Shown: piece by piece, positions 6,237 to 27,215 of the stretch
How positions within the stretch are numbered: the first letter of the stretch is position 1
How the letters are laid out: each line of letters starts with the position of its first letter
Origin: an uncultured Gammaproteobacteria bacterium
Lineage (GTDB): Bacteria; Pseudomonadota; Gammaproteobacteria; CAZMMH01
Length of the DNA stretch: 29,676 nucleotides
Reading direction: 5' to 3'
Assembly: GCA_964567315.1 (NCBI GenBank)
Contig: CAZMMH010000002.1
Span: forward strand, 1 to 29,676
Notes under the pieces: generated by a model
Seen by the model: only the letters and a program-made list of their open reading frames with translations
The model's database searches: none
Told to the model about the DNA's origin: nothing
Translations under genes and position numbers: made by a program

Positions 6237-9167
6237 ATGCCGCACAGGATGTTTCGTCTAAATCCCCACAGCCCGATCAAGCGTCCCCTCATCGTGACCG
6301 TGGTGGCGGCGATCGGGTTGTTGCTGGCCGTCTTCATCTCCGCCACCTACAGGCTGCGCACCGACGTGGAACGGGAGGACATGGCGCGCCTGGGACAGGG
6401 GGCGCAAAACCTTTTCCGCCTTGAACTGAGGGAAGACAACAACGCCCTGCACGGGCTGTTGACCCTGATGGAGAGGAACCCGGTGCTGCTCCGGGCCTGG
6501 GCCCGCGGCGACCGCGCGGCCCTGCTGGCGGCCAGCCGCCCGCTGTTCGAGGCGATGCGTGCCGCCAGCCGCGTGGATGGGCTGCGCTTCATCCAGCCGG
6601 ATGGCAGGGTCTTCCTGCGGGTGGACGACCCGGGACGCCACGGCGACCGGATCGGTACGGCGGCCTTGCGCCAACTGGCGGAGGCGGGGACCTTTGCCAG
6701 CGCGATCGAGCTCAACGGCGCGGGGGCGCTGACCTTGCGGGCCGGCGCCCGTTGGCGGGCCCATGGCCGGGACCTCGGTTTCGTGCAATTGGACAAGGGT
6801 GTCGTGCCGATGGTCGACGAGGTGCACCGACGCCTCGGCCTCGACATGATGATCCTGTTCCCCGCCGGTGCCGGCGGCCGCAGGGCCGCGGCGGCGCCGG
6901 GGCAGACGCGAATCGGCGGCTACTCCCTGGTGGCCAGCACCCTGATGGGGGTGCCGGTGTCGCTGCGCCGCTTCATCGAACGTGGTTTCGCCCTGGGCCG
7001 CGGCCCCGACCTGCGCTATCCGGGCGAAGAGACGCCACGCTTCACCCTGGCCTTCGCCCTGCCGGCGATCCAGGGCGGCGGCACTCTTCCCGCCCGGGGT
7101 CTGCTGATCAGCGGTGCGGACGTGGGGCGCCACGCCCTGCACCGCAGCGTGGGCCTGGTGACCGGGGCCAGTCTGGCCCTGGCGGCGCTGCTGGTGATGT
7201 TCTTTTCCCGCCAGCTGGAATATATCGAGCAGCAGGTGCTCACGGCCAATCGGGCCCTCGCCGATGGACGCCGCAACCTGGAAAGGCAGGTGGCGGAGCG
7301 GACCCGGGCCCTGCGGGCGTCGGAAAACAAATACCGGGCGGTGATGGAGCACGCCGGCGACGGCATCCTGCTCGCCGAACCGGAGGGCCGGCTGATCGAA
7401 GCAAACCGCCAGGCGGAGATCATCACCGGTTATCCGCGCGAACAGTTGCTGAACATGACCGCGGCGCAGTTGCATCCGCTGGATGAGCGCAACGCCGTGG
7501 AGCGCGCGTTCGAGGCGATGGCCAAGGGGCACTCCCTGCTGCACCAGTTGCAGGTCCTGCGCAAGGACGGGGCCCTGCTGCCGGTGGAGATCGCCTCCGG
7601 CCAGGTGGCGGTGGGCCGCACGCCGCTGGTGGTGGCCATCCTGCGGGACATCAGCGAGCGCATCCGCGCCCGCGAGGCCCTGCGGGCGAGCAGCCAGCTG
7701 TTGGAGCGGACCTTCGACAGCCTGGACGACGCCCTGTTCCTGATCGACCCGAAGAGTCGGCGGGTGATCTCCTGCAACCAGGCCGTGGAGAGAATTTTTT
7801 ATTACCCCAAGGACGAGGTGGTGGGCCGCTCCAGCAAGATGTTGCACACCGGCCCGGAGCAGGCGGAGGCGTTCATCCGCAGCGCCTTCGCCGCCCTGGA
7901 CAGCGACGGGGTGTTCCATACCGAGTTCCAATTGCGGCGGCGCGACGGCAGCGTGTTTCCCAGCGAGCACACGGTGACCGAGATCGTTGGCGAGGACGGC
8001 AAGCGGGTGACGCTGGTCTCGATCGCGCGGGACATTACCCGGCGCAAGCATGCCGAGGCGGCGCTGTTGCGCAGCGAGGAGCGTTTCCAGCTGGCCATGC
8101 GCGGGGTCAACGACGGCCTTTGGGACTGGCAGGTGCAGGCCAACGAGATCTATTTTTCTCCGCGCTGGAAGGAGATGCTCGGCTACGCCGACGGTGGACT
8201 GCCCAACCGGCTGGAGGAGTGGACGAGCCGGGTCCACCCCAAGGACTGGCCGGCGGTCAAGGCGGCCATCGACGAGCACCTGCTCGGACAGGCGCCGAAA
8301 TTCGAAAAGACTTACCGTATGCGCCATGTCGACGGTCATTATGTCTGGATCCTCGGCCGCGGCCAGGCCCTGTATGGCGACGACGGCATGCCGTCACGGA
8401 TGGTCGGCACCCACACCGATATTACCGAGCGGGTCGAGGCCGAGGAGCGTGAACGCCAGCTCCAGGCCCAGCTGTTGCGGCTCGAACGCCTGAGCACCAT
8501 GGGTGAGATGGCGACCTCACTGGCCCACGAACTGAATCAGCCCCTGGCGGCGGTGGTGAATTTTGCCGGCGGCTGCATCTACCGCATTCGCGCGGGCAAG
8601 GCCGACGAGGCGGGATTGCTGTTTGCCCTGGAGCGGATCTCGGAACAGGGCAAGCTGGCCGGCGAGATCATCCGCAGGGTCCGCATGTTCGTGAGCAAGG
8701 CGGAACTGCAGGTGGAGACCATCGAGCTGCACCAGGTGCTCGACGAGGCGCTGGTTTTTCTCGACGGCGTGCTGCGGCGCGGCCGGGTGGCCATCCGCAT
8801 CGAGCTGGGGAAGGGGCTGCCGGCCGTGCTCGGGGACCGGGTGCAGTTGCAGCAGGTGCTGATGAACCTGATACGCAATGCCGGCGAGGCGATGGCGGAA
8901 CAGCCGGAGGAGGAACGCCGCTTGACGATTGCCGCCGAGCCGGACAAGGATGGCAACCTGGAGGTGGCGGTCAGCGACAACGGCCCGTCGGCGGTCGCCG
9001 CCGAACTGGAGGGAATGTTTCGCCCGTTCCATACCTCCAAGGCCGAGGGCATGGGCATGGGGCTGGCAATCTGTCGTACGATAGTGGAGTCCCATCATGG
9101 CCGGATCTGGGCCGAAGCGAATGGACATCGCGGGATTAGCGTGCACTTCACCCTGCCGAAGGCTTAG
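6237..9167 (+). CDS. Membrane sensor histidine kinase: TM - Cache-like periplasmic domain - TM - three PAS domains - HisKA - HATPase (FixL/TtrS-type transmitter)
   Basis: Two hydrophobic segments flank a domain containing VFLRVDDPGRHGD (dCache_3-like). PAS/PAC repeats include WDWQVQANEIYFSPRWKEMLGY...VHPKD. H-box MATSLAHELNQPL, N-box QVLMNLIRNA, G1 DNGPS, F-box FRPFHTSK, G2 GMGMGLAIC. Start could alternatively be ATG 6250. Confidence 0.93.
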   Translation: MPHRMFRLNPHSPIKRPLIVTVVAAIGLLLAVFISATYRLRTDVEREDMARLGQGAQNLFRLELREDNNALHGLLTLMERNPVLLRAWARGDRAALLAASRPLFEAMRAASRVDGLRFIQPDGRVFLRVDDPGRHGDRIGTAALRQLAEAGTFASAIELNGAGALTLRAGARWRAHGRDLGFVQLDKGVVPMVDEVHRRLGLDMMILFPAGAGGRRAAAAPGQTRIGGYSLVASTLMGVPVSLRRFIERGFALGRGPDLRYPGEETPRFTLAFALPAIQGGGTLPARGLLISGADVGRHALHRSVGLVTGASLALAALLVMFFSRQLEYIEQQVLTANRALADGRRNLERQVAERTRALRASENKYRAVMEHAGDGILLAEPEGRLIEANRQAEIITGYPREQLLNMTAAQLHPLDERNAVERAFEAMAKGHSLLHQLQVLRKDGALLPVEIASGQVAVGRTPLVVAILRDISERIRAREALRASSQLLERTFDSLDDALFLIDPKSRRVISCNQAVERIFYYPKDEVVGRSSKMLHTGPEQAEAFIRSAFAALDSDGVFHTEFQLRRRDGSVFPSEHTVTEIVGEDGKRVTLVSIARDITRRKHAEAALLRSEERFQLAMRGVNDGLWDWQVQANEIYFSPRWKEMLGYADGGLPNRLEEWTSRVHPKDWPAVKAAIDEHLLGQAPKFEKTYRMRHVDGHYVWILGRGQALYGDDGMPSRMVGTHTDITERVEAEERERQLQAQLLRLERLSTMGEMATSLAHELNQPLAAVVNFAGGCIYRIRAGKADEAGLLFALERISEQGKLAGEIIRRVRMFVSKAELQVETIELHQVLDEALVFLDGVLRRGRVAIRIELGKGLPAVLGDRVQLQQVLMNLIRNAGEAMAEQPEEERRLTIAAEPDKDGNLEVAVSDNGPSAVAAELEGMFRPFHTSKAEGMGMGLAICRTIVESHHGRIWAEANGHRGISVHFTLPKA

Positions 9168-9177
9168 GAGGAAAGCA

Positions 9178-9798
9178 ATGCATGAGAAGGCTGTCGTCTA
9201 TGTTGTCGACGATAATGAGGAGTTGCGCGTTTCCCTGCGCTGGCTCTTGGAATCGGTTGGGGCGCGGGTCGCGACGTTTGCCTCGGCCCAGGAGTTCCTC
9301 GACGCCTTCGATCCGCGGCAGCCGGCCTGCCTGATCCTCGACATCCGCATGCCGGGGATGAGCGGCCTGGAATTGCAGGAAAAGCTCAAACGGGACCAGG
9401 GGCACCTGCACATCATCTTCCTTACCGGCCACGGCAATGTGCAGATCGCGGTGCGGGCCATGCACGACGGCGCGGTGGACTTCTTCGAAAAGCCGGTGGA
9501 CGAACAGATGCTGCTGGACCGGGTGCAGACGGTGCTGCAGCAGATCGATGAGCAGCGCGCGACGATGATGGAACGTGCCGTGCTGGAGGCACGGCTCAGT
9601 CTTCTGACCCCGCGTGAGCGCGAGGTTCTGGAGCACGTGGTCGCCGGCAAGCGGACCAAGAATATCGCCGAGGATCTCGGCATCAGCGCCCGCACCATCG
9701 AGGCCCATCGGGCCAAGATCATGGAGAAGATGCGGGCCAATTCGGTCGGCGAACTGGTCTCCAAGGTGATGGAGTTCCGGCAGGGCAACGTTGCGTAG
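9178..9798 (+). CDS. Response regulator, FixJ/TtrR family (receiver + LuxR-type HTH)
   Basis: ATG 9178 follows an AGGAGG RBS. Motifs VYVVDD, CLILDIRMPGMSG, FLTGHG, DFFEKP, and HTH LTPREREVL...KNIAEDLGISARTIEAHRAKIMEKM. Confidence 0.94.
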   Translation: MHEKAVVYVVDDNEELRVSLRWLLESVGARVATFASAQEFLDAFDPRQPACLILDIRMPGMSGLELQEKLKRDQGHLHIIFLTGHGNVQIAVRAMHDGAVDFFEKPVDEQMLLDRVQTVLQQIDEQRATMMERAVLEARLSLLTPREREVLEHVVAGKRTKNIAEDLGISARTIEAHRAKIMEKMRANSVGELVSKVMEFRQGNVA

Positions 9799-9893
9799 TT
9801 TCGCGCAGCCGCAACGGGACTAGCCCGAATCGCATTTTCTTCACGCCTGGTTAATCTTCAACGCTTGGGGCCGGTTCGGTCGGCCCGGAGCGA

Positions 9894-10271
9894 GTGTTGG
9901 GGGATGCCGTGCGTCGCTACACCGTCTATGTGGTTGAGGACAATCACCAGTTGCGTGATTCCCTGCGCTGGCTGCTGGAGGGCGCGGGCTACCGTGTGAC
10001 CTGCTTTGCCGGCGCCGACGAGTTTCTGGGCGCCTGTGACGCGGGTGGACGCTGCTGCCTGATCACCGATGTGGTGATGCCCGGAATGGACGGGCTCGAT
10101 CTGTTGCGCGAAATGGCGCAGCGGGCGCTGAATATCCCCAGTATCGTGATGACCGCCTATGACAGCCGCCTGTTGCGCGAACGGGTGGCGGCCGCCGGGG
10201 CGTCGGGCTACCTATGCAAGCCGTTCGAGGCGAACGAACTGTTGGCGTACCTCGGCTCGTTGAGTGGATGA
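9894..10271 (+). CDS. Stand-alone receiver-domain protein (single-domain response regulator)
   Basis: VYVVEDN, LITDVVMPGMDG (phospho-Asp), VMTAY and YLCKPF are all present. No output domain. GGAG RBS; start GTG 9894 or TTG 9897. Confidence 0.88.
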   Translation: MLGDAVRRYTVYVVEDNHQLRDSLRWLLEGAGYRVTCFAGADEFLGACDAGGRCCLITDVVMPGMDGLDLLREMAQRALNIPSIVMTAYDSRLLRERVAAAGASGYLCKPFEANELLAYLGSLSG

Positions 10272-10853: not shown

Positions 10854-12371
10854 ATGGGTATGCAAGGCCTCGGGGCAGCCGCGGTGCTGGCTGTGGTCGT
10901 ACTTGGCGCAGCTCCGGGCGTCAGCGCGGAGACCCGGCTGGAAAGGGCCGCGCAGCAGTTCGCGGGACAGAACTACGAAGAGGCGGCGGCCCTGCTGGCG
11001 CCGCGCTACGCCCATGCCGACGGCTCCGAAGGTTCCCGTCTGCTGGGTTTCGTCTATGTCGGTCAGGGCCGCTATGCGGCGGCCGTTCCCCTCCTGCGCA
11101 TCCGCGTGGCGAAGGTGCCGGAGGACGGGGAGGCGCGGCGCTACCTGGCGCAGGCGCTGTTGGGCGAAGGTGAGGCCCCGGCTGCGCTCGCCCAGCTCGA
11201 CCTACTGCCCGAAACGATGGTCCGCGCCGATTCCACCCTGCTGCTGCGTGGCCGCGTGCTGGCGGCCCTGGGCCGGCTGGAGCCGGCCGCCAGCGCCTTC
11301 CGGGCGGTACGCGGGCCCGCCCTGCGCGGGGAGGCGAGCGTGGAACTGGCGCGGCTCTATCTGGCGGCGGGACACGCAGGCGAGGCGCGGCGGGTGATCG
11401 ATGGAGCGCTTCCGGACGCCGGGCCCTACGCGGCCTACCAACTGCAGGCCCTGCGCGAGCGTCTGCACGGCCAGTGGGTGGAGAAGCGGCTTGGTGTGCA
11501 CCTCGGCTACCGGCTGGAATACGACAGCAACGTGCCGGCCGCGTCCGACGATCCCGTCCTCTCCAGCGGGATCAAGAAGGAGGACTGGCGCAATGTGCTT
11601 ACCGCCGACCTGCTGGGCCGGCAGCCACTGACGGCGGGCTGGGCGCTGTTCGGCGAGGTCCATCTGTATGGCAACAGTCATCACCAACTGAGCGCCTACG
11701 ACCTGCTGCAGCAGAATTACCTGGCCGGCATCGGCTGGTCGGGGCGGGTGATCGGGCTGCGCCTGCCCTACGAATACACCCACGACACCCTGGACGGGCA
11801 CTCCTACATGACCAGCCAGGCGCTGACGCCGGGGCTCTCCGTCAATCTACCGGGCCGCCGGCTGCTATACGCCTACCTGCGGCTGCAGCGGGACGCACTC
11901 GATTCGAGCTGGCTGCTGGCCAACACGGTGGGCTACTGCACCAGTGCCGGCTCCGCATGTGCCGAGGACCGCAGCGGTGATGGGCACTATGCCGGTGTGA
12001 TCTTCTCCATGCCGCTGTTCAGCCGTGGCCACCTGCGGCTGCAGGCCGAGGGCGGCCACAAGAACGCCGATGGGGCCAACTGGGACCACGACCGGGTCGG
12101 CCTGGCGGCCCGGCTGGGCGTTGCCCTGGGTTCGGCCTGGAACGCCTCGCTGGGGGCGGAGCAGCGGCGGGAGTACTACGACAACGTCAACACCATCTGG
12201 CACGCGACCCGCGAGGACACACGCACGCGCTATACGGCGTCGCTGGCCTACCGCCTGGCCACGGGCTGGGATCTGCGGCTACAGGGGTCGTACACCCGCA
12301 ACGACTCCAATATCGCGTTTTACCAGTACTCGCGGCGGGTGGTGGCCTTGGGGATCAACTGGAATTACTGA
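10854..12371 (+). CDS. TPR-containing outer-membrane beta-barrel protein (Slam/DUF560-like), 505 aa
   Basis: ATG 10854 follows a GGGGAGG-rich RBS. Signal peptide-like GLGAAAVLAVVVLGAAPGVSA. Ala/Leu-rich helical TPR-like repeats occupy the first ~190 aa. The barrel has alternating-aromatic strands from LGVHLGYRLEYDSNV to SYTRNDSNIAFYQYSRRVVALGINWNY, with a terminal aromatic residue. Confidence 0.8.
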   Translation: MGMQGLGAAAVLAVVVLGAAPGVSAETRLERAAQQFAGQNYEEAAALLAPRYAHADGSEGSRLLGFVYVGQGRYAAAVPLLRIRVAKVPEDGEARRYLAQALLGEGEAPAALAQLDLLPETMVRADSTLLLRGRVLAALGRLEPAASAFRAVRGPALRGEASVELARLYLAAGHAGEARRVIDGALPDAGPYAAYQLQALRERLHGQWVEKRLGVHLGYRLEYDSNVPAASDDPVLSSGIKKEDWRNVLTADLLGRQPLTAGWALFGEVHLYGNSHHQLSAYDLLQQNYLAGIGWSGRVIGLRLPYEYTHDTLDGHSYMTSQALTPGLSVNLPGRRLLYAYLRLQRDALDSSWLLANTVGYCTSAGSACAEDRSGDGHYAGVIFSMPLFSRGHLRLQAEGGHKNADGANWDHDRVGLAARLGVALGSAWNASLGAEQRREYYDNVNTIWHATREDTRTRYTASLAYRLATGWDLRLQGSYTRNDSNIAFYQYSRRVVALGINWNY

Positions 12372-12381
12372 GGGGAAGCAG

Positions 12382-13110
12382 ATGAAGCGCCTTTGGAGTT
12401 GCGTATTCGCCGCGGGCCTGTGGCTCGCTGCGTTCACCGGACCGGCCATGGCCGCCCCCGTCGGGCAGGTGACGAAGGTGCTGGGCAGCGCCGACGTCAC
12501 CCGCGGCGAGACTCCCGCCCAGCCGCTGAAGGCGGGCGATCCGATTGAGGAGCACGACGTGCTGCGAACCAAACGCGGCTCGCTGCTTGAGGTGACCATG
12601 AGCGACGGCAGCCAGCTGACCCTGGCGGAGAATACCCGCCTGGAGGTGACCCGTTACGTCACCGGCGACCACCCGCAGGGGATCTTCGATCTGGCACGGG
12701 GCAAGGTGCGCAGCGTGGTGACCAAGGTCTTTTCGTCGCGCAGCGAATCCTTCCGCGTACGTACGCCGACCGCCGTGGTCGGGGTCTCGGGGACGGATTT
12801 CGTCACCGAGTATGGCCGCTTCACAGTGGTCTACGTCTATCGCGGCGTGGTGATCGCGCGCAGCGCCGACCCGTCGATCGGCCTTTATCTGATCCTGCGC
12901 CCCGGCCAGGGCGCGATCATCCGCCGCGGCCTGTCGCCGGAATTCTCCGGGCGGATTCCCGACGACTTCTGGGGCGGCGGCAACCAGGACCTGCGCAGCG
13001 GCGGCAACCAGGGAAGCGACAGCAACGGCCTGGAGCCGTATGTGCCGCCGAAGCAGCCGACGCCTCCCAGCGGCGGTGGCGGCGGAGATTACTACACGCC
13101 GATCCAATAG
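12382..13110 (+). CDS. Secreted/periplasmic FecR-domain protein, 242 aa
   Basis: Signal peptide MKRLWSCVFAAGLWLAAFTGPAMA|A. FecR-domain motifs GDPIEEHDVLRT, MSDGSQLTLAENTRLEV, FDLARGKVR and FRVRTPTAVVGVSGTDF. Gly/Pro-rich tail. No anti-sigma N-domain and no TM anchor. Starts 10 nt after the barrel stop. Confidence 0.87.
   Translation: MKRLWSCVFAAGLWLAAFTGPAMAAPVGQVTKVLGSADVTRGETPAQPLKAGDPIEEHDVLRTKRGSLLEVTMSDGSQLTLAENTRLEVTRYVTGDHPQGIFDLARGKVRSVVTKVFSSRSESFRVRTPTAVVGVSGTDFVTEYGRFTVVYVYRGVVIARSADPSIGLYLILRPGQGAIIRRGLSPEFSGRIPDDFWGGGNQDLRSGGNQGSDSNGLEPYVPPKQPTPPSGGGGGDYYTPIQ
12974..13012 (+). repeat. Direct repeat, 15 bp x2, 24-bp period, in the FecR-protein tail
   Basis: GCGGCGGCAACCAGG at 12974-12988 and 12998-13012, encoding GGGNQD / SGGNQG. 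Confidence 0.7.
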
Positions 13111-13148
13111 GGGCCGTTGCGTAGAACGATGCAGTATCGACACCGGAT

Positions 13149-15302
13149 ATGCCGGTGACTCCGTCGGGCCAGGGCGGCAGGGCGGGTACGCGCCATGCGC
13201 GCCGCCTGGCGCGACGCTTCGCGGTCGTCGCGGCCCTGCTCAGCCTGCTGCTCTACTGGTGGCACCCGACCCTGCTGGAGCGGATCGACACCCGTGCCCG
13301 GGACGTGGTGTTCCAGCTGCGTCAGGCGCCGCCGCCGTCACCCCTGGTGGCGGTGGTGGCGGTGGATGAGGCCAGCGTCAAACGCTACGGCCGCTGGCCG
13401 TGGTCGCGGGAACTGCAGGCGCGCCTGATCGAGCGGCTCAAGTCCCTGGGTGCGGCGGTGATCGGTCTGGATATCGTCTATTCCAGCCCCTCGACGCCCG
13501 CCGCCGACCAGGCCCTGGCCAAGGCCCTGGCGGCGCCGGGGGCACCGGTGATCGGCGGCTACTTCTTCCGCGACGTGCAGAGCGTGGCGCCGGCACCCGC
13601 GGCGCTGGCGGTCCTGCGGCGGCATCGCATTGGCGCGGTGCTCGCCAGCCATCCCGGTGCCCGCGCGGCGGCGGTGCCGGACTATCCCCACGTGGAGATC
13701 AGCGAGGTCGGGCTGGCCCGCCGCTTCGCCGGGCTCGGCTTCTTCAACTACATTCCCGATGCCGACGGCCTGGTGAGGGCGGCACCGGTGGTGCTGCGCT
13801 ATCACGGCGACTACTATCCGTCGCTGCCCCTGGCGGCGCTGGCCGAACTCTCGGGCCAGCCGGCGGTACTGAACGTCGACGATGACGGTGTCAGCGGGCT
13901 GCGTCTCGGGCCCCTGGCGCTGCCGGTGGACCGCCTCGGCCGGCTCGAACTCAACTTCTACGACCACAAGCGGCCGGTTCCGCTGCTGAGCGCGGCCTCG
14001 GTGCTGGACGGCAAGATCGACCGGAAGGCCATTGCAGGCAAGCTGATTTTCGTCGGGGTTACCGAGGTCGGCATCGCCGACGTGCGACCGACGCCGATCG
14101 ACGACAGCTTCCCCGGGGTCGCAGTGCACGCCACCGTCGCCTCCAACGTGATCCAGGGCCGCTTCCTCAGCCGCGACCGCGACGCGGTGCTGTTCGACGT
14201 GGCCATGATGGGCCTGCTGCCGCTGTTGATGGTCTGGGCCATCTCCCACTTGCGCCGGCCCTGGGCCATGGCCGCGATCTACCTGGCCACCCTCGGGTTC
14301 GTTTGGGGCGCGTTCTATTACGCCCTGGCGGCTGCGGCCCTGGTGGTCAGCCTGGTCTATCCGCTGATCGGCGTGACCCTGGGCTATCTGGTGTTTCAGA
14401 CCTATCACCAGCTGGTCAGCGAGCGTCAGGGCCGCTTCCTGCGCCAGGCATTCTCCACCTATGTCTCGCCGGCCCTGGTCAACCGCCTGATCCGCGACCC
14501 CGACACCCTCAGCCTGGCGGGGGAAAAACGTCCCATCAGCGTGCTCTTTTCCGACATCCGCGGCTTCACCAGCATCTCCGAGGCAATGAGCCCGGAACAG
14601 CTGGTGGCCCTGTTGCAGCACTATCTCGGGCCGATGACCGATGCGGTGATGGAGGAGAACGGCACCCTCGACAAGTACATCGGCGACGCGGTGATGGCGA
14701 TCTTCAACGCACCGCTGGACGTGGCCGAGCATCCGCGCCACGCGGGCCGCTGCGCCTTGCGCATGCTGGAGCGGCTCGACGACCTCAATCGCGGCTTTCG
14801 CGAGGAGTATGGCGTCTCCCTGCGTATCGGCATCGGCATCCACACCGGCGAGGCGATCGTCGGCAACATGGGCAGCAGCAAGCGCTTCGACTACACCGCC
14901 ATGGGCGACACGGTGAATCTCGCCTCGCGCCTGGAGGGACGGACCAAGGCCTACGGGGTGGAGATCGTGATCTCGGGCGACACCGCGGCACAGCTGGGGG
15001 AGGGCTTCCTGTTGCGCCGGCTCGACCGCATCCGGGTGAAGGGCAAGAGCCGGCCGGTGGAGATTTTCCAGCTCTGCCGCGATCAGCGTCCGGCGACCCG
15101 GGCCCTGGCGGAGCGGTTCGAGGCGGCCCTGGAGCACTATTTCGCCGGCCGTTTCAGCAAGGCGCTGGCGGAATTCCTGGCCCTGGCGGGCGAGTATCCG
15201 GGTGACGCCCCGAGCCGCCTCTACGTGGAGCGTTGCGAGCAGCATATCAATGAACCGCCGGTGGGGGAGTGGGACGGGGTCTTCACCGCGCAGGAAAAGT
15301 GA
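13149..15302 (+). CDS. CHASE2-domain class III adenylyl cyclase with C-terminal TPR-like helices
   Basis: N-terminal TM, CHASE2 motifs (VVAVDEASVKRYGRWPWSR, IGLDIVY, FNYIPDADGLVR, PGVAVHATV), three TM helices, then cyclase motifs LFSDIRGFT, DKYIGDAVMA, IGIHTG and FDYTAMGDTVNLASRLE. Ends in EWDGVFTAQEK. Confidence 0.93.
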   Translation: MPVTPSGQGGRAGTRHARRLARRFAVVAALLSLLLYWWHPTLLERIDTRARDVVFQLRQAPPPSPLVAVVAVDEASVKRYGRWPWSRELQARLIERLKSLGAAVIGLDIVYSSPSTPAADQALAKALAAPGAPVIGGYFFRDVQSVAPAPAALAVLRRHRIGAVLASHPGARAAAVPDYPHVEISEVGLARRFAGLGFFNYIPDADGLVRAAPVVLRYHGDYYPSLPLAALAELSGQPAVLNVDDDGVSGLRLGPLALPVDRLGRLELNFYDHKRPVPLLSAASVLDGKIDRKAIAGKLIFVGVTEVGIADVRPTPIDDSFPGVAVHATVASNVIQGRFLSRDRDAVLFDVAMMGLLPLLMVWAISHLRRPWAMAAIYLATLGFVWGAFYYALAAAALVVSLVYPLIGVTLGYLVFQTYHQLVSERQGRFLRQAFSTYVSPALVNRLIRDPDTLSLAGEKRPISVLFSDIRGFTSISEAMSPEQLVALLQHYLGPMTDAVMEENGTLDKYIGDAVMAIFNAPLDVAEHPRHAGRCALRMLERLDDLNRGFREEYGVSLRIGIGIHTGEAIVGNMGSSKRFDYTAMGDTVNLASRLEGRTKAYGVEIVISGDTAAQLGEGFLLRRLDRIRVKGKSRPVEIFQLCRDQRPATRALAERFEAALEHYFAGRFSKALAEFLALAGEYPGDAPSRLYVERCEQHINEPPVGEWDGVFTAQEK

Positions 15303-15437
15303 GCCGGCCCGCTGCCGCGGCGCGGCACTTGAGTTTTCCGGCGGACCGCCCCACATCGTTTGCACAGAGGCCGGTCGCGCTTGCCCCTGAACGTGGAAGC
15401 GGCGCGCGCGGCGGCCAGGTTTCGGAGAAGTACCCGC

Positions 15438-15887: not shown

Positions 15888-16574
15888 TCAGGCGCTTTGC
15901 AGCCGCCCGTCCACCAGGTGGCAGACGGTGTCGAAGCCCTCGATCATGCGCTGGTCGTGGGTGACCGTGATCACGGCGGAGCGGCGCTCCCGGGCGATCC
16001 GGCGCAGCAGTTCCATGACCCGGTGTCCGCGCTCGGTGTCCAGGGAGGCCGTCGGCTCGTCGGCGAAGATGATCGGCGGGGAATTCGCCAGGGCCCGGCC
16101 GATGGCGATGCGCTGCTGTTCGCCGCCGGACATCTCCGCCGGCAGGGCCCTGGCCCGGTGGGCGATTTCCAGGTATTCCAGCAGTTCATCGGCGCGCCGC
16201 CGGGCCGCCGCGGTGGCGGCGCCGTTGAGGGTCAGCGCCAGGGCGATGTTGTCGCGCGCGTTGGCGAAGGGGATCAGATTGTGCTGCTGGAAGATAAAGC
16301 CGATGCGCTCGCGGCGCAGGCGGCGTACGTCGGTATGTACCCGGCCGTCCTTGAATACCTCCTTGCCCTCAATGACCACGCGCCCGCTGCTGGGCAGCTC
16401 GATCAGGGCGATGGAGAGCAGCAGGGTGCTCTTGCCCGAGCCGCTGGGGCCTAGCAGGGCGGCCAGTTCACCGCTGCGCACCGAGAGGTCGATCCCCTTG
16501 AGCGCCTCGATCGCCTGGGCGCCGCTGCCGAAGACCTTGCGCAGCCCCTCAACCCGCAGTACCTCCTGATCCAT
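15888..16574 (-). CDS. ABC transporter ATP-binding protein (MacB/LolD-like NBD), 228 aa
   Basis: Begins MDQEVLRVEGLRKVF. Walker A GPSGSGKST, GFIFQQHNLIP, signature MSGGEQQR, Walker B IIFADEPT, H-loop VTHD. The true start is 16574; the ORF-track start at 17018 runs inside the permease gene. Confidence 0.93.
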   Translation of the reverse strand: MDQEVLRVEGLRKVFGSGAQAIEALKGIDLSVRSGELAALLGPSGSGKSTLLLSIALIELPSSGRVVIEGKEVFKDGRVHTDVRRLRRERIGFIFQQHNLIPFANARDNIALALTLNGAATAAARRRADELLEYLEIAHRARALPAEMSGGEQQRIAIGRALANSPPIIFADEPTASLDTERGHRVMELLRRIARERRSAVITVTHDQRMIEGFDTVCHLVDGRLQSA

Positions 16575-16579
16575 GCCGG

Positions 16580-17773
16580 TCAGCCCCCCAGGGCCATGCG
16601 CGCCGGCGTGCGCAGGGCCTGGACGATGCCCAGGGTGCTGGCCAGGACGCCGCCCGCCAGGATCACCAGGAAGGTGATGAAGGTCTCCTGGGGCAGCATC
16701 ACCAGGGTGCGGGGGAAATGCGGCTGAGCGAGCTGGGCGAAGGTGTAGGCCAGGGCGAAGGCGCCCAGGGTGACCACCATCGACTGTTGCAGGATGAGCG
16801 AGACGATCACCCGGTTGGCTGCGCCCATCAGCTTGAGGGTGGCGATGGACCTGAGCTTCTCGATGGTGAGCACGTAGATCAGCAGCGAGATGATGACCAC
16901 CGCCACCACGATGAGCAGGGCGCGGAACAGCTTGAGCACGGTGCCCATCTTCTTCAGCTTGCCCTCGATCAACAGGGTCCGCTCCTGGGCCGTGGTGTAG
17001 ACGTTGTAGTGCAGCCATTGGCGGATGTGTTCGGCCACCGCCTCGGTGTCGCTGCCGGGAGTGAGGTGCACCAGCACTGCATTGATGGTGCGGCTGGTGC
17101 CCTCGAACAGCGGCAGCAGGCGGCGTGCCTGCTCGCTGCCGAGTCCCGCCGCCTGCAGCCGCGCCAGGGTGTTGGCACGGCTGCGCAGCAGGGCCTCGTT
17201 GTCGAGGTCGTAGAGGACCTCCTGGGCGTCGGGCAGCGCCAGGTAGAGCAGGGGATTGCCGGCGGCATCGACCCCGCCCTTGATCAGGCCGACGATGGTG
17301 TATTGGTGCAGACCGAGGGTCAGCTTCTGCCCCGGCTTGAGCCCCAACTTGGTGTCGGCCACGGCCTGGTAGTGGGCGCGTTCGATCGGGCGGCCGGCCA
17401 CCAGCCCGCGGGGCCCGCCCAGGCCGTCGAAGATGTCGTAGCCGATGATGGTGAACTGGCGTTCGCGGTCACCCACCTGGCGCTGCACGGTGTAGCTGAT
17501 GAACGGCGCCGCCCTGGCCACGCCCGGCACCGCGGCCACGCTGCGGTAGCTGTCCTGAGGCATGCGCGACTGTTCGTTGAAGGGGCCGCCACGGCCCTTT
17601 TCCACGATCCACAGGTCGGAGCCGGTGTTGTCGATCAGCCAGACGCCATCGGCCACGTTGCCGCGGTAGATGCCGTTCATGATCAGGACGATGGCGAGCA
17701 GCAGGCCAACGCCGACGGTGGCACCGGCGAACTTGCCGTAGTGCCTGCGCATGTCCATGAGGGCGAGGTTCAT
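16580..17773 (-). CDS. ABC transporter permease, MacB/FtsX family (type VII, 4-TM with large periplasmic domain)
   Basis: N-terminal TM, long periplasmic region, C-terminal TM block with EKLRSIATLKLMGA (FtsX/MacB ER..EI..L..LGA motif). ATGA overlap with the adaptor gene. Confidence 0.9.
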   Translation of the reverse strand: MNLALMDMRRHYGKFAGATVGVGLLLAIVLIMNGIYRGNVADGVWLIDNTGSDLWIVEKGRGGPFNEQSRMPQDSYRSVAAVPGVARAAPFISYTVQRQVGDRERQFTIIGYDIFDGLGGPRGLVAGRPIERAHYQAVADTKLGLKPGQKLTLGLHQYTIVGLIKGGVDAAGNPLLYLALPDAQEVLYDLDNEALLRSRANTLARLQAAGLGSEQARRLLPLFEGTSRTINAVLVHLTPGSDTEAVAEHIRQWLHYNVYTTAQERTLLIEGKLKKMGTVLKLFRALLIVVAVVIISLLIYVLTIEKLRSIATLKLMGAANRVIVSLILQQSMVVTLGAFALAYTFAQLAQPHFPRTLVMLPQETFITFLVILAGGVLASTLGIVQALRTPARMALGG

Positions 17774-18912
17774 TCGGCTGCGCGCGTCGCCGGGCGGACC
17801 CGGGCCCCCGGCTTTATCCCGCCGGGGCGGGCAATGAGCTGCATGCCGGTCTCCAGCCCGGAGAGGGCGATGGCCTCGCCGTTGGCCACCGGTCCGAGTT
17901 TTACCGGTGTGAACAGGGCGCGTCCACGTTCGACGCGCAGTACCCCGGGCTGGGTGCCGCTCCGGAGCAGGGCCGAGGCCGGAAACATCATGCCCGCGAC
18001 CTGCCCGGTGCGAATGATCGCCTGGGCCTCCTCGCCGATGGCGTAGCGCCGGGGGGTGGAGTCCAGACCCACCTCCACCTCGAGCTCCCGGGTGGAGGGG
18101 TCCGACTGCAGGCCGATGCGCGCCACATGCCCGGCGACCTCCGCACCGGTACGCAATTTGACCTTAGCCGGAAGACCGACCCGGATCGCCGCGCTCTGTG
18201 CTTCGTCCACCCGCATCACCACCCACAGGGTGGCCGGATCGATCAGGCGGAACAGCGGGGTTCCGGGGCTGACGGTCTGTCCGGGTTCGGCGTAACGGCG
18301 TACCACCAGGCCGTGGAACGGTGCGGTGATGCGGGTGTAGCCGAGCTGGGTGGCGAGGACATCGCTTTCCGCGCGCAGCCGGGCGGTTTCCGCCTGGCGT
18401 ACCTTGAGCGTCGCCTCGGCCAGATCCAGTGCGCTGCGCGCGGTGTCGTCGCTGGAGACGCCCTTGTCCAGCTCGGCCTTGGAGATCAGGGCCTTGGCAT
18501 ACAGCGAGCGGGTGCGGGCCAGTTCCTGCTGCGCCAGACGGTTTGCCGCCTTGGCGTGGCTGACGGCGGCCCGGGCGGCCGCCTCCTGGTGCAGGGCCGC
18601 GTTGAGCCCGGCGGCGGCCGAGCGCTGCTGGTTGCGGATCTCCTCGGAATCCAGCGTCGCCATCACGCTGCCGGCGTCCACCGTCTGGCCCTGGTCGACC
18701 GGCAACTGGTCGATCCGGCCACTGATGCGGGCCGCGATGGTGGTGGCGGTGCGCGCCTGGAGCGAACCGGGGCCGTGCACCTGCAGCGGCAGGGCACCGG
18801 GCTCGACGCCGGTGACTGCCACCGTCGCCGTGCGCAGCAGCAGCCACCAGGCGGCGAAGCCGGCCAGGGCGACGGCGGCAAGCAGGGGGAAAAGAAGGGT
18901 GCGGAAACGCAT
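17770..18912 (-). CDS. Periplasmic adaptor / membrane fusion protein (MacA/HlyD-like), 380 aa
   Basis: Start ATG 18912 gives MRFRTLLFPLLAAVALAGFAAWWLLLR (membrane anchor). Lipoyl halves IAARISGRIDQLPVDQGQTV and ITAPFHGLVVRRYAEPGQTVSPG flank an Ala-rich coiled-coil hairpin. Confidence 0.9.
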   Translation of the reverse strand: MRFRTLLFPLLAAVALAGFAAWWLLLRTATVAVTGVEPGALPLQVHGPGSLQARTATTIAARISGRIDQLPVDQGQTVDAGSVMATLDSEEIRNQQRSAAAGLNAALHQEAAARAAVSHAKAANRLAQQELARTRSLYAKALISKAELDKGVSSDDTARSALDLAEATLKVRQAETARLRAESDVLATQLGYTRITAPFHGLVVRRYAEPGQTVSPGTPLFRLIDPATLWVVMRVDEAQSAAIRVGLPAKVKLRTGAEVAGHVARIGLQSDPSTRELEVEVGLDSTPRRYAIGEEAQAIIRTGQVAGMMFPASALLRSGTQPGVLRVERGRALFTPVKLGPVANGEAIALSGLETGMQLIARPGGIKPGARVRPATRAAE

Positions 18913-19030
18913 CAAGGCCGGCCTTATGCAGGAATGCTGGGTGAGGTCGGCGACCTCTTTCGGATTATGGAAGGCGCTGAAGAGACGCGCAAGATTCCGC
19001 CTCCGGGCAGCCTCCGGCCGGGGTGGGAAG

Positions 19031-19039
19031 TGGTATAGT
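19031..19039 (+). promoter_or_regulatory. Extended -10 promoter candidate for ptpA
   Basis: TGGTATAGT (TGn-TATAGT), about 100 nt upstream of the ATG. Followed by TCGCG, as is the rluC element. Confidence 0.45.
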
Positions 19040-19139
19040 TCGCGCTCCACGGGAGGCCCGGCCGCAGCGCTCGCCCAGCGGCTGGCGCCGGTCCCCGGTC
19101 TTCCCGCAGAGTTGAACCAAACCCGAATAGCAGGACGTT

Positions 19140-19698: not shown

Positions 19699-22308
19699 TC
19701 AGTCTTCGCCGTGGCTGCCGGAGGAGGCGGGTGCCGGTTCGGGACGCTTGGGCGCCTCGGACGGTTCGCTCTTCGCTGCGGGTTCGGCTGCCGGCTGGGG
19801 CGCCGGTTTGGGCGCCGCCTCCGCCGCCGGGCGGGCAGGTTCCGCCGCTGGTGCCGGCGCGGGCTTCGGTGCCTCGGCCGGCTTTGCGGCCTCCACCGGG
19901 CGCGGGGTCTCGACCGGCTTCGGCGCTTCCGCCGGTTTGGCCGGCTCGCCGGGCTTCACCGCTGCGCTCGGCTTTGTGGCTTCGCTCGGGCGGGGTGCCG
20001 TGGGTGCCGCGGCCTCGGCCGGTTTTGCCGCGGCTTCGCTGGGCTTGGCGCTTTCGGCCGGTTTCGCTGCCGCGGCGGCCGGGGCCTTCGGCTGGGACGC
20101 TCCGCGCTGGGGGCGCTGAGCGTCGTTCTCGCCGCCGCTCTTGCTTTCGCCACTCGCCTTGCCGCCGTTCTCGTCGCCGGAGGTCGCACTGGCGTCGGCA
20201 TTTTCCTCGTTGCGGCGGCTTTCACCACCGCGGCGGCGTCCGCGTCCGCCACGACGACCGCGCCTGGAGCGGCCCTCGCCGCTGGGCCGCTCTTCGCCGG
20301 CCTTATCCTCGCCACCGCGGGCGGTGCGCTGCTCGCCGGCACCTTCGGCGGCTGCGGCCTTTTTCGGCGCTTGGGCGGCGCCGCGGCGCTCGCCCTGGGA
20401 CTCGCCGCGCTGACGGCGGCCAGCCGATTCTTCGGCGCCCTGGTCACCGCCGGAACGACGGGAACGGCCGGAGCCGCCGCCGGAGCCGCCGCGGCGACGA
20501 CCGGAGCCGCTGCTGCGGCCGCTGTCGCGTCCGCCCTCGCTGCTCTGGCGGCGGCGGGGCTTGCTCGGCTCGGGCTTTTCCACCGGCTCCTCTTCCTTGG
20601 CGCTGCCGGAAAAGAGGTGGGAGAACAGCCGGCGGATGATGCCGGGGCTGCTGGGTTCGGCCTTGGTGTAGGTGGGCTCGGGCTGCGGTTGCTGGGCCGG
20701 GACCGGGGTGGCCGGGGCCACGCCGCGGACCGCCGGCACCTCGAGGGCGGCGTTGGCCTCGGCAGGCGTGGGCGCCTCGGGGCTCTCCGGCTCGGTGACC
20801 ATGCGGTAGCTGAGTTCGCGCTCCTTCGGCAGTTCGTCGTCGCGCAGGCGCACGACGTCGTAGTGGGGCGTCTCCAGATACGGGTTGGGGATCAGTACCA
20901 CGCCGATGCCGTGGCGTGCCTCGATGTTGGTGATGACGTCGCGCTTCTCGTTGAGCAGGAAGGTGGCCACCTCGACCGGCAGCTGGGCGTGGACCTCGCC
21001 GGTCTTCTCCTTCATGGCGTTCTCCTCCACCAGGCGGAGAATGGCCAGGGCCAGGGATTCGACGCCGCGAATGGTGCCCTGGCCCTTGCAGCGGGGGCAG
21101 ACCACCTGGCTCGATTCGCCGAGCGAGGGGCGCAGGCGCTGGCGCGACATCTCCAGCAGGCCGAAGCGGGAGATGCGCCCGATCTGCACCCGGGCACGGT
21201 CCACCTTGAGCGCTTCGCGCAGGCGGTTCTCCACCTCACGCTGGTTCTTGGCCGGGGTCATGTCGATGAAGTCGATCACCACCAGGCCGCCGAGGTCGCG
21301 CAGGCGCATCTGCCGGGCGATTTCGTCGGCCGCCTCAAGATTGGTGTTGAGGGCGGTCTCTTCGATGTCGGCACCCTTGGTGGCGCGGGCCGAGTTGACG
21401 TCGATCGAGACCAGGGCCTCGGTGTGGTCGATCACGATGGCGCCACCGGAGGGCAGGCGCACCTCGCGGGTAAAGGCCGACTCGATCTGGGATTCGATCT
21501 GGTAGCGGGTGAACAGCGGCACGTCGTCCTGATACAGCTTGAGCTTGTTCAGGCTGTGCGGCATCACCTGGCGCATGAAGTCTTCGGCCTGGGCATACAC
21601 GTCGGGGGCGTCGACCAGAATCTCGCCGATGTCGTTGCGCAGGTTGTCGCGCAGGGCGCGGATGATGATGTTGCTTTCCTGGTAGATCAGCACGGGGGCC
21701 GAGTGCTCGGCGGCGGCCTTGGAGATGGCCTCCCACACCTGGAGCAGGTAATCGAGGTCCCACTGCAGCTCTTCCGCGTTGCGGCCGACGCCGGCGGTGC
21801 GCACGATCAGGCCCATGTCCTCGGGGATATCCAACTCGCGCATGGCGTCGCGGATCTCGGAGCGGTCGACGCCCTCGATACGCCGGGAGACGCCGCCGGC
21901 GCGGGGGTTGTTGGGCATCAGCACCAGGTAACGGCCGGCCAGGCTGATGAAGGTGGTCAGGGCGGCGCCCTTGTTGCCGCGCTCCTCCTTCTCCACCTGC
22001 ACCACCACCTCCTGGCCTTCGCGCAGGGCGTCCTTGATGCTCACGCGGCCGGAGGCGGCGGCGGCCTCTTCGCTGAAGAAGCTGCGGGAAACCTCCTTGA
22101 GGGGCAGGAAGCCGTGGCGCTCGGCGCCATAGTCGATGAACGCGGCCTCCAGGCTGGGCTCTACGCGGGTGATCTTACCCTTGTAGATATTGGATTTTTT
22201 CTGCTCGCGCGAAGGGGTCTCGATGTCGAGGTCGTAGAGCTTCTGGCCATCGACCATGGCCACCCGCAACTCTTCGGGCTGAGTTGCGTTGATTAGCATT
22301 CTTTTCAT
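19699..22308 (-). CDS. rne: Ribonuclease E, 869 aa
   Basis: Starts [31 protein letters not shown]1 domain ([10 protein letters not shown]), [17 protein letters not shown], Zn-link CPRCKGQG, amphipathic membrane-targeting [13 protein letters not shown], Arg-rich segments and a long disordered tail. Confidence 0.98.
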
Positions 22309-22760
22309 ATTTATTGTCTCTCGGGGGCCCGGTCCTGCTTGGCGGCCGCCGGCAGAGCCGGGCCGGCGCCGGGCGTACGCCTGCGTGCGCACCCGTGAAG
22401 CGGGGCGCAGGCAGCATTGCCGTGAACTCGGGCCAGAAATAGCGGCCCAGCCGGCACAGCAGCAGCGCAAACAGGGGGGCGTGACAGTTCATTGAATCGG
22501 GTACGGTCGGCACCGGTCGTCGGTGCCTCGGTTCCTTGTGCATGTTGACGGCGGGGCGGGCCCTGGGCCGCTGCCGCGCCTGTTTCTCGATCCCCGTCGA
22601 GGGGTGGTACCGCCGGAGAACCGTCGGCGCCTGTCTCGGACGCGAATGCGAAGAATCTTGCTTCTGCCTGACCTGCTGGGCGGATCGCCCGCCGCGGGTC
22701 TGGCGGAAGGTAATATAACAGTGAACAGGAGTGGCATCAACGTTCTGTAATATGCGCTAA
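22309..22760 (-). promoter_or_regulatory. Long structured rne leader / divergent rne-rluC control region
   Basis: 523-nt intergenic gap with inverted repeats at 22379-22412 and 22509-22527 and an AT-rich patch near 22710-22790. Long autoregulatory rne 5' UTRs are established in E. coli. TSS not determined. Confidence 0.5.
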
Positions 22761-22831: not shown

Positions 22832-23785
22832 ATGAATCAGCCGGCCCCTTCACCCCGCGTCCAGGAACTGGAAATCGACGCCGAACAGGCGGGCCAGCGC
22901 ATCGACAACTTCCTTCTGCGCCGGTTGAAAGGGGTGCCGAAGAGCCGCATATACCGCATCCTGCGCAAGGGTGAGGTGCGGGTGAATCGGGGGAGGATCG
23001 GTCCCGATTATCGCCTTCAGAGTGGCGATCGGGTCCGTATTCCGCCGATTCGCGTCGGCGAGGCCAAGCCGGCGCCCCGTACCGACGGGGATCGCCTCGC
23101 CTGGCTGGAGCAGCGGGTGCTGTTCGAGGACAAGGGGCTGCTGATCCTCGACAAGCCGAGCGGCATGGCGGTGCACGGCGGCAGCGGCGTCAGCTTCGGC
23201 GTGATCGAGGCGCTGCGGGCCCTGCGCCCGAGCGCGCCGTTCCTGGAGCTGGTACACCGCCTGGACCGGGATACCTCGGGCTGCCTGATGGTGGCCAAGA
23301 AACGCTCGATCCTGCGCGCCCTGCACGAACTGATGCGCGGCGACGGCGTCGAAAAGCGCTATCTGGCCCTGCTCGCCGGGGCCTGGAAGGGCGGCGAGCG
23401 GCGGGTTTCGGCGCCGTTGCGCAAGAACGTGGTGAGCAGCGGCGAGCGCATCGTGCGGGTCGACCCGGAGGGCAAGCCGGCGCGCAGCCTGTTCCGCCCG
23501 CTGCGGCGCTTTGCCGACGCGACCCTGGTGGAGGTGGTGCTGGATACCGGGCGCACCCACCAGATCCGGGTGCACGCCGCCCACATCGGCCACCCCGTGG
23601 CCGGCGACGAGAAATATGGCGACGAGACCTGCAACCGGCGCCTGCGCGAACTGGGCCTGAAACGGCTGTTCCTGCATGCCCACGCGCTGGCCTTCCAACT
23701 GCCGGAGCGCGAGCGGCTGGAGGCGAGCACGCCGCTGGACCCGGAGCTGCAGGCGGTGCTGGAGAGGCTGCACGAGAAGAAGTGA
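22832..23785 (+). CDS. rluC: 23S rRNA pseudouridine(955/2504/2580) synthase
   Basis: S4 domain GQRIDNFL...[33 protein letters not shown], catalytic [19 protein letters not shown] and LFLHA. Divergent from rne. Confidence 0.97.
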
Positions 23786-24468
23786 CGATGAGTGGCGAAT
23801 ACCGATTGGTGATTTTCGACTGGGACGGCACCCTGATGGATTCGGTGGGGCAGATCCTGGAGTGTATGCAGGCGGCGATCCGCGAGCTGGAACTGCCTTC
23901 ACGCAGCGACGAGCAGATCAAGAACATCATCGGCCTCGGCCTGCACGAGGCGATCGAGCAGCTGTTCCCGGGCCACCCGCCGGAGTTTGCCGAGCGCGTG
24001 GCCGGACGCTACCGCCACTACTACCTTTCCGGTGAGGCCAGCCCCTCGAGCCTGTTCGACGGGGTGGTCGGGATGCTCGATAGCCTGCGTGACGCCGGCT
24101 ACCGGATGGCGGTGGCCACCGGCAAGGGGCGGCTGGGGCTGGACAAGGTCCTGGCGGAGACCGGTGTGGGCCACTATTTCGAGGCCACCCGCTGTTCCGA
24201 CGAAACCCGCTCCAAGCCCCATCCCCAGATGCTGCACGAGCTGATGGCGGAGCTCGGCAGCGGGCCCGGCGAAACCCTGATGGTCGGCGATACCGAGTAC
24301 GATATGGAGATGGCCTGCCGGGCCGGGGTCGGGCCGCTGGCGGTCAGCTACGGCGTCCACGACTGCCGCCGCCTGCACCGGCATGCGCCGCTGGCCTGCC
24401 TCGATTACATCGGCGAGCTGCCGGCCTGGCTGCACCAGGCGGCCGGCCGGCGGCGCGCGGGCGGCTGA
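23782..24468 (+). CDS. HAD-IA family hydrolase (phosphoglycolate phosphatase-like)
   Basis: Motif [11 protein letters not shown], motif II VATGK, motif III SKPHP, motif [14 protein letters not shown] overlap with rluC (ATG 23788 is an alternative start). Confidence 0.92.
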
Positions 24469-24542
24469 AGTCCCCTTCCCGGCGGTGGGCGCACTGCCCG
24501 CCCGGGTGCGGAATCTGATCGGCAACGGACAAGGAGAGCGGA

Positions 24543-27131: not shown

Positions 27132-27215
27132 TGCGCCACCTTGCTTCTTGTTCGCTATTGTCTGCCGCCCGGCCCCGTTCACGGGGACCCGGCGAGGCAC
27201 GCAGCCGTATATGAA

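Follow-up and report, generated by a model that had tools for sequence, protein, structure and literature searches.

CHASE2 is a common bacterial sensor domain for which, to our knowledge, no ligand is known. In the literature searched, the sole genetic clue to its control comes from Sinorhizobium meliloti, where the outer membrane protein NsrA is needed for perception of an outside protein signal through the CHASE2 class III adenylate cyclase CyaK (PMC7529298, PMC10463352), and a path from an outer membrane protein to a CHASE2 cyclase is in this sense already known. The present study concerns three adjacent genes for a Slam/type 11 secretion system (T11SS)-family outer membrane protein (gene 1), a short secreted FecR-domain protein (gene 2) and a CHASE2 receptor cyclase (gene 3). 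They are located in a stretch of 29,676 nucleotides (nt) of an uncultured Gammaproteobacteria bacterium (assembly GCA_964567315.1, contig CAZMMH010000002.1, positions 1 to 29,676 of the forward strand), which was analyzed as a whole and is referred to as the window. On balance, we lean towards reading these genes as an envelope-spanning cyclic AMP (cAMP) signalling module of the NsrA–CyaK kind, split into separate proteins and built on a T11SS-family barrel.

Gene clusters of a similar kind have been mentioned in passing. Clusters with a CHASE2 cyclase, a phosphodiesterase, a FecR protein and a TPR protein in Campylobacterota (Mo et al. 2022, PMC9239204) and operons with a LysM-FecR protein and a CHASE2 kinase in Burkholderia and Pseudomonas (PMC5192318) place FecR genes beside CHASE2 sensors and TPR proteins beside CHASE2 cyclases, but these were neighbourhood notes without a mechanism, and the TPR protein was neither identified as a T11SS-family barrel nor linked to NsrA. 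An earlier interpretation of the window made from its letters (the sequence-only reading) had held the module to be uncharacterised in this form; this stands for the T11SS identity, which is absent from Mo et al., and not for the clustering of CHASE2 cyclase, FecR and TPR genes, which they had already described. With respect to the literature searched, the assignment of the TPR protein to the T11SS barrels, a putative class of FecR-headed cargo and a clade of short FecR proteins are new.

The T11SS outer membrane proteins (Slam1/Slam2, HsmA, HrpB, NilB; DUF560, PF04575) have the same architecture and fold as the gene 1 product, and the FecR partners of most gene 1 relatives end in the barrel known from the T11SS cargo TbpB and hemophilin. 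The partner in the window does not; it bears a signalling-type FecR domain, which lies outside the cargo architectures of PMC12282271, and its module is coupled to a CHASE2 cyclase rather than to genes for the uptake of metal or haem. With FecA–FecR–FecI the window shares a FecR-type periplasmic domain (PF04773) with a conserved Gly-Thr motif as the link to an outer membrane protein, but its output is a cyclase and it has no transmembrane (TM) anchor. The YfiB–YfiR–YfiN (TpbB) system of Pseudomonas aeruginosa consists of an outer membrane protein, a small periplasmic protein and an inner membrane cyclase; the three-tier logic is that of the window, but the proteins belong to unrelated families and cyclic di-GMP (c-di-GMP) is produced.

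The three genes and their products

Three open reading frames (ORFs) on the + strand, at 10854–12371 (gene 1, 505 amino acids (aa)), 12382–13110 (gene 2, 242 aa) and 13149–15302 (gene 3, 717 aa), are separated by exactly 10 nt (gene 1/gene 2) and 38 nt (gene 2/gene 3), and probably constitute a co-transcribed operon.

The gene 1 product is a member of the Slam/T11SS (DUF560) family. Pfam matches were obtained for TPR_19 (35 bits), TPR_16, DUF2860 (35.2 bits, cut-off 22.9) and SlipAM/DUF560 (24.7 bits, cut-off 22), the last covering only the final third of the model. The protein shows the features of the family, namely a Sec signal peptide (about residues 1–25, with a hydrophobic N-terminus and an A-x-A-type cleavage site), an N-terminal periplasmic TPR domain and a C-terminal 14-strand DUF560 barrel, and it ends in an aromatic residue, as is typical of outer membrane proteins. 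Modelling with AlphaFold2 (AF2) from the single sequence gave an unusable barrel (pLDDT about 23) and was redone with an alignment of 64 relatives, resulting in a model with a pLDDT of 92.7 in which 13 confident helices in residues 28–206 form a periplasmic TPR-like domain and residues 213–505 a 14-strand β-barrel.

When this model was compared by Foldseek with the Swiss-Prot part of the AlphaFold database, the best eight matches were all Slam1, Slam2 or HsmA proteins of Moraxella, Neisseria, Haemophilus, Pasteurella and Acinetobacter (E 3e-21 to 3e-17, TM-score 0.51–0.57), aligned over both TPR domain and barrel. The search of the PDB found no Slam structure there, the fold matches being TPR-barrel exporters (BcsC, PelB) and 14-strand barrels (CymA, OmpG). 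A word-indexed homologue search with the barrel returned only the query itself, whereas an exhaustive search returned 600 relatives, with E below 1e-30 for 34; no match to the barrel was found in plasmids by tblastn.

The gene 2 product starts with a Sec signal peptide (residues 1–24, cleavage AMA/AP), followed by a FecR-type domain of about residues 25–190 (Pfam FecR PF04773, 60 bits, residues 59–157) and a low-complexity tail rich in Pro and Gly (about 190–242). Neither a hydrophobic segment past the signal peptide, that is, a TM anchor, nor an anti-sigma domain was found in it, and the C-terminal 8-strand barrel of the TbpB/hemophilin type is absent from the protein and was not found anywhere in the window. 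The motif G-V-x-G-T-D-F (window 12790–12810, FecR residues 134–140) is invariant in the short FecR clade described below, and its Gly-Thr pair is nearly invariant in all 44 FecR partners collected. In FecR-type anti-sigma factors such as FoxR, self-cleavage takes place at a Gly-Thr pair, to which this one presumably corresponds.

The gene 3 product is a CHASE2 receptor adenylate cyclase, class IIIb-like, with Pfam matches to CHASE2 (185 bits) and Guanylate_cyc (91 bits). Its topology comprises a first TM segment (25–43), a periplasmic CHASE2 region (about 44–345), three TM segments (345–417) and the cytoplasmic cyclase domain. The catalytic set of class III enzymes is complete, with two metal-binding Asp (D468, D512), the Lys/Thr purine pair (K508 and T583, the latter in FDYT) and the Asn/Arg transition-state pair (N590, R594), and we infer that the product is cAMP. 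In the TM and cyclase part the protein shares 39% identity with S. meliloti CyaK, which has Ser in place of Thr583.

These results bear out what the sequence-only reading had described: three co-oriented and tightly spaced genes, the TPR-barrel, FecR and CHASE2 cyclase domains, an intact cyclase active site, and a FecR protein with a signal peptide but no membrane anchor or anti-sigma domain, which is not a classical anti-sigma factor. In agreement with the same reading, a profile search of the contig gave no match to Sigma70_r2 and none to a TonB-dependent receptor. Classical Fec-type signalling at the window was rejected, since an anti-sigma domain, an ECF (extracytoplasmic function) sigma factor and a TonB-dependent receptor or transducer are all missing.

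Recurrence of the neighbourhood and NsrA-type fusions

To collect relatives of gene 1, 300 genomes of the class to which the window belongs were searched with a profile of eight barrels, and about 65 full-length matches were obtained; 40 of these loci were retrieved with 8-kb flanks and scanned in six frames with profiles built for this analysis. The compared genomes are kin, and the neighbourhood counts are not independent. A FecR-domain ORF adjoins the barrel gene in 34 of the 40 loci, mostly directly downstream, and a CHASE2 cyclase gene is found within 8 kb in 11, in varying orientation; co-occurrence across genomes, for which the sequence-only reading had suggested a neighbourhood analysis, is therefore observed. 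All 44 FecR partners collected match the Pfam FecR family.

In a reverse survey the best CHASE2 match per genome was taken from 40 of the 57 other matching genomes, irrespective of barrels. A FecR ORF was present within 8 kb of the CHASE2 gene in 15–16 of these 40 loci and directly adjacent in 11, and the chance expectation, given a handful of FecR genes per genome, would by a rough estimate be a few per cent at most. Many of the CHASE2 proteins with a FecR neighbour are not cyclases and carry other output domains, and the pairing was also seen without any barrel. The order barrel–FecR–cyclase of the window recurs in plasmid pAMI5 of Paracoccus aminophilus and in a Shinella plasmid.

The three genes are thus a conserved unit, the pairings of which recur in different families of the class and also among Alphaproteobacteria, and because the same genes are found together in many genomes the arrangement is far from chance. 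A coincidental neighbourhood, with a barrel serving some unrelated cargo and with FecR and cyclase independent of each other, has in its favour only the general point that the usual cargo of T11SS barrels is a lipoprotein or hemophore (PMC12282271). It is contradicted by the recurrence of the pairings, by the lack of a TbpB-like cargo domain in the window and by the natural fusions described below, and we regard it as highly improbable. The sequence-only reading had itself named a plain Slam/T11SS translocon for an unrelated lipoprotein as the finding that would speak against a signalling module; the family assignment turned out to be right, and the unrelated lipoprotein did not, the partner being FecR.

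In some genomes the FecR domain is part of the barrel protein. A 1101-aa protein of genome G001 consists of FecR, TPR repeats and a C-terminal outer membrane barrel, and its gene is followed by genes for a CHASE2 protein and a response regulator; similar FecR-TPR-barrel fusions adjoin CHASE2 cyclase genes in genomes G018 and G144. On pSymB of S. meliloti, cyaK is immediately preceded by a gene whose stop overlaps the cyaK start and which encodes 1190 aa with a FecR domain (66–160), TPR repeats (417–587) and, C-terminally, a weak match to a barrel. This gene is probably that of NsrA. Its size agrees with the barrel portion of NsrA given as residues 600–1200 (PMC7529298). Between this protein and gene 2 the FecR domains are 30% identical over 130 aa, and hhalign of the window barrel protein against the S. 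meliloti protein aligned the TPR region alone; a tblastn search with the Paracoccus barrel gave no S. meliloti match. The S. meliloti gene SMc02177, which we assume to adjoin cyaD1, also belongs here. Its product is a Clr target with a FecR domain (PMC5498481).

The window and the NsrA–CyaK system (with CyaD1/CyaD2 and Clr) share a CHASE2 class III adenylate cyclase, and in both FecR, TPR and β-barrel elements are encoded next to it, so that the window may have a counterpart of the S. meliloti outer membrane element. They differ in that FecR is fused in S. meliloti and a separate 242-aa protein in the window, where the elements are split over two genes; in that the barrel is of another type, with a barrel portion of about 600 aa there as compared with about 290 aa for the 14-strand Slam/DUF560-type barrel here; and in that no Clr-type regulator is adjacent in the window. 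Since the NsrA-type protein bears a FecR domain, the window is, as judged from these sequence comparisons, probably a split counterpart of NsrA–CyaK and not a cascade with an extra relay. In the sequence-only reading NsrA had figured as just a barrel/TPR protein, which is correct for barrel and TPR and misses the N-terminal FecR domain. Of the receptor–relay–cyclase cascade which it had proposed, the predicted link from the outer membrane over FecR to CHASE2 is supported by co-location and by the FecR-TPR-barrel fusions, and the additional relay step is not, as FecR is fused in NsrA.

FecR partners as possible exported cargo or resident adaptors

Clustering of C-termini revealed a domain of about 170 aa common to 32 of the 37 long FecR partners (at least 440 aa); a cargo-barrel profile seeded from two alphaproteobacterial proteins had not reached the other partners, whereas direct clustering did. 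In a comparison with the PDB the profile of this domain matched transferrin-binding protein B (4qq1, E 3e-6; 5kkx) and hemophilin (8glo and 6om5, E 3e-4 and 6e-3), both known as T11SS cargo. About ten cargo architectures have been given for cluster 1 T11SS, with no FecR head among them (Grossman et al. 2025, PMC12282271), and the main text of that paper makes no mention of FecR, CHASE or cyclase. The FecR proteins of Paracoccus aminophilus pAMI5 and Shinella match the NCBI model for a 'Slam-dependent surface lipoprotein' (slam_lipo) with E 5e-9 and 1e-8, below its cut-off, and the FecR-domain proteins LipL45 and Lsa33 of Leptospira are annotated as surface proteins.

Together with the Slam/T11SS fold and Pfam signature of gene 1, these observations suggest the chief alternative reading, in which the barrel would be a working T11SS translocon that exports FecR to the surface or medium, and the cyclase a neighbouring sensor of unexported periplasmic FecR (feedback) or a controller of the pair through cAMP, with no surface signal passing inwards. 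For the window this seems rather unlikely to us. Gene 2 and all partners in its clade are devoid of the cargo barrel; in the NsrA-type fusions FecR precedes the TPR repeats and the outer membrane barrel and is hence periplasmic, as are the peptidoglycan-bound LysM-FecR partners of CHASE2 kinases (PMC5192318); and FecR and CHASE2 pair even where a barrel is missing.

The six barrels nearest to that of the window (35–42% identity) are each followed by a FecR protein of 236–256 aa, and these short FecR proteins are 40–49% identical to gene 2. In a maximum-likelihood tree of 51 barrels the window barrel and the six nearest ones are united in a long-branched clade (support 100/100), set apart from the barrels whose partners bear the cargo barrel. 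Partners within the clade are short FecR proteins only, all without this barrel, and a CHASE2 cyclase gene is part of the cluster at all four loci with a long enough contig. The gene order is identical to that of the window at locus L075, a large secreted protein is encoded between FecR and cyclase at L074 and L076, and the cyclase gene is divergent at L073, with genes for cyclic nucleotide monophosphate (cNMP)-binding proteins around it. The short partners without a cargo barrel favour a periplasmic adaptor role of FecR in this clade.

The large secreted proteins consist of 1397 aa without a Pfam match (L074:9299–13492) and of 982 aa with CLIPPER/He_PIG (L076:3199–6147), and a 576-aa secreted protein with CLIPPER_2 is encoded beside the module at L073:4330–6060; these proteins are candidate ligands or cargo of the module. 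None is encoded in the window. At L073 the module is surrounded by genes for three small cNMP-binding proteins and a Metallophos protein (6307–6684 and 10879–12713); the latter may be a cyclic-nucleotide phosphodiesterase, and such neighbours fit a self-contained cAMP circuit.

At two loci of the wider family, L039 (G015:C38) and L038 (G212:C12), two or three FecR paralogues of differing length are encoded behind one and the same barrel; some carry the cargo barrel and others do not, and a barrel may serve several FecR partners. The NCBI model of the LapA 'retention module' was matched in its N-terminal half by 34 of the 44 FecR partners (best E 1.2e-15), and residues 28–92 of gene 2 reached 28.6 bits, below the cut-off of 50. 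By this sequence likeness, the FecR head may have a fold in common with the plug by which giant adhesins secreted through type 1 systems are held in the outer membrane. The match is a hint that in the long forms the head might be kept in the periplasm while the tail is exported, which is speculation at this stage.

All versions have FecR in common, be it as part of a barrel protein, as the partner of a T11SS barrel or with a LysM domain, and in each of them it occurs with CHASE2, so that the simplest reading is that of a periplasmic adaptor. In the split NsrA-like module favoured here, the gene 2 protein would dock on the TPR/barrel protein and contact the periplasmic CHASE2 region of gene 3. 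The cue would be an event at or across the outer membrane, such as a ligand on the surface loops of the barrel or the Pro/Gly-rich FecR tail occupying the barrel, and would alter the engagement of CHASE2 by FecR and consequently cAMP synthesis; the cAMP could then be read by the many cNMP-binding proteins of the genome. Since the partner is without an export address in the clade of the window, FecR would stay there as a resident adaptor, periplasmic or docked on the barrel, which modulates cAMP synthesis. In this scheme we infer the physical contacts, the direction of the FecR effect (activating or inhibiting), the kind of cue and the identity of the product as cAMP. A complex prediction for FecR (25–242) and the periplasmic part of CHASE2 (44–345), the interaction for which the sequence-only reading had looked to modelling, gave a score of 0.00 and hence no support, a result that carries no weight either way on binding.

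Several findings weigh against the signalling module. Six of the 40 barrel loci have no FecR neighbour, two of these six being at contig ends, and about 60% of the CHASE2 genes in the reverse survey are likewise without one. The barrel of NsrA (about 600 aa) is not detectably homologous to the 290-aa barrel of the window. Most FecR partners of the wider barrel family look, by their C-terminal domain, like T11SS cargo, and a FecR of the gene 2 type could leave the periplasm, as the barrel family is a secretion system.

A special case of the adaptor scheme is a sequestration switch with the logic of YfiBNR, in which free periplasmic FecR would repress (or activate) the CHASE2 cyclase and envelope stress would lead the TPR-barrel protein to capture FecR and release the cyclase, so that the cue would be the state of the envelope and not an outside ligand. 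The analogy is suggested by the three-tier layout shared with YfiB/YfiR/YfiN (Malone et al.), and the co-location and fusion data apply to it equally. Neither YfiB nor YfiR has a sequence or fold relation to the proteins of the window, and covalent FecR-barrel fusions fit a permanent complex better than reversible capture. We consider such a switch improbable.

A bolder form of the adaptor reading can be put forward tentatively: a branch of the T11SS family might have been converted from a secretin to the outer membrane half of a signalling receptor, FecR might be the long-sought protein ligand of CHASE2, and the barrel-FecR pair in the clade of the window, with its partner lacking an export address, might be a pure surface-to-cAMP transducer.

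Genomic context and significance

A terminator-like GC hairpin with a T-rich tail (15311–15337, hairpin 15311–15327, + strand; consensus match only) begins 9 nt past the cyclase stop and is the probable end of the operon. Upstream of the module (6237–10271, + strand) are genes for a 976-aa PAS-rich histidine kinase with a dCache_3 sensor, a LuxR-type response regulator overlapping the kinase gene, and a receiver-only protein. Downstream and convergent (15888–19050, − strand) is a MacAB-like ATP-binding cassette (ABC) pump composed of an ATPase, an FtsX/MacB permease and an HlyD-type adaptor. Neither set was found beside the module in the nearest relatives, and for this reason the flanking genes were left out of it. 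On one plasmid each of Shinella and Ensifer, NHLP-type bacteriocin exporters (HlyD and C39-peptidase ABC protein) are the neighbours of the barrel/TPR-FecR-cyclase module; the link of the MacAB-like pump to the module may be chance, as the nearest relatives have no such pump. The remainder of the window is housekeeping (19699–22470, −; 22832–25493, +; 25521–27200, −), with RNase E, an RluC-type pseudouridine synthase, a HAD phosphatase, an SppA-type S49 peptidase and a methyl-accepting chemotaxis protein.

The genome assembly, which is 74% complete, contains 20 cNMP_binding matches by profile search and three CHASE2 proteins, all three of them cyclases. Three more barrels of the gene 1 family are encoded on contigs C250, C103 and C77. 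The one on C250 is accompanied by a 599-aa FecR partner with a cargo barrel, the contig ending 426 nt further on; no FecR gene adjoins the barrel on C103 or C77, and the C103 barrel was placed by the tree in the sister group of the clade of the window.

The findings lead to a testable proposal, namely that FecR-domain proteins control CHASE2 sensors and that outer membrane barrels hold FecR, either fused, as in the NsrA type, or as a separate protein, as in the Slam/T11SS type. The clade of the window, with its short FecR and no export address, would be the simplest version and is suited to reconstitution in E. coli. The T11SS family, so far tied to nutrient capture and adhesion, is linked here to second-messenger signalling.

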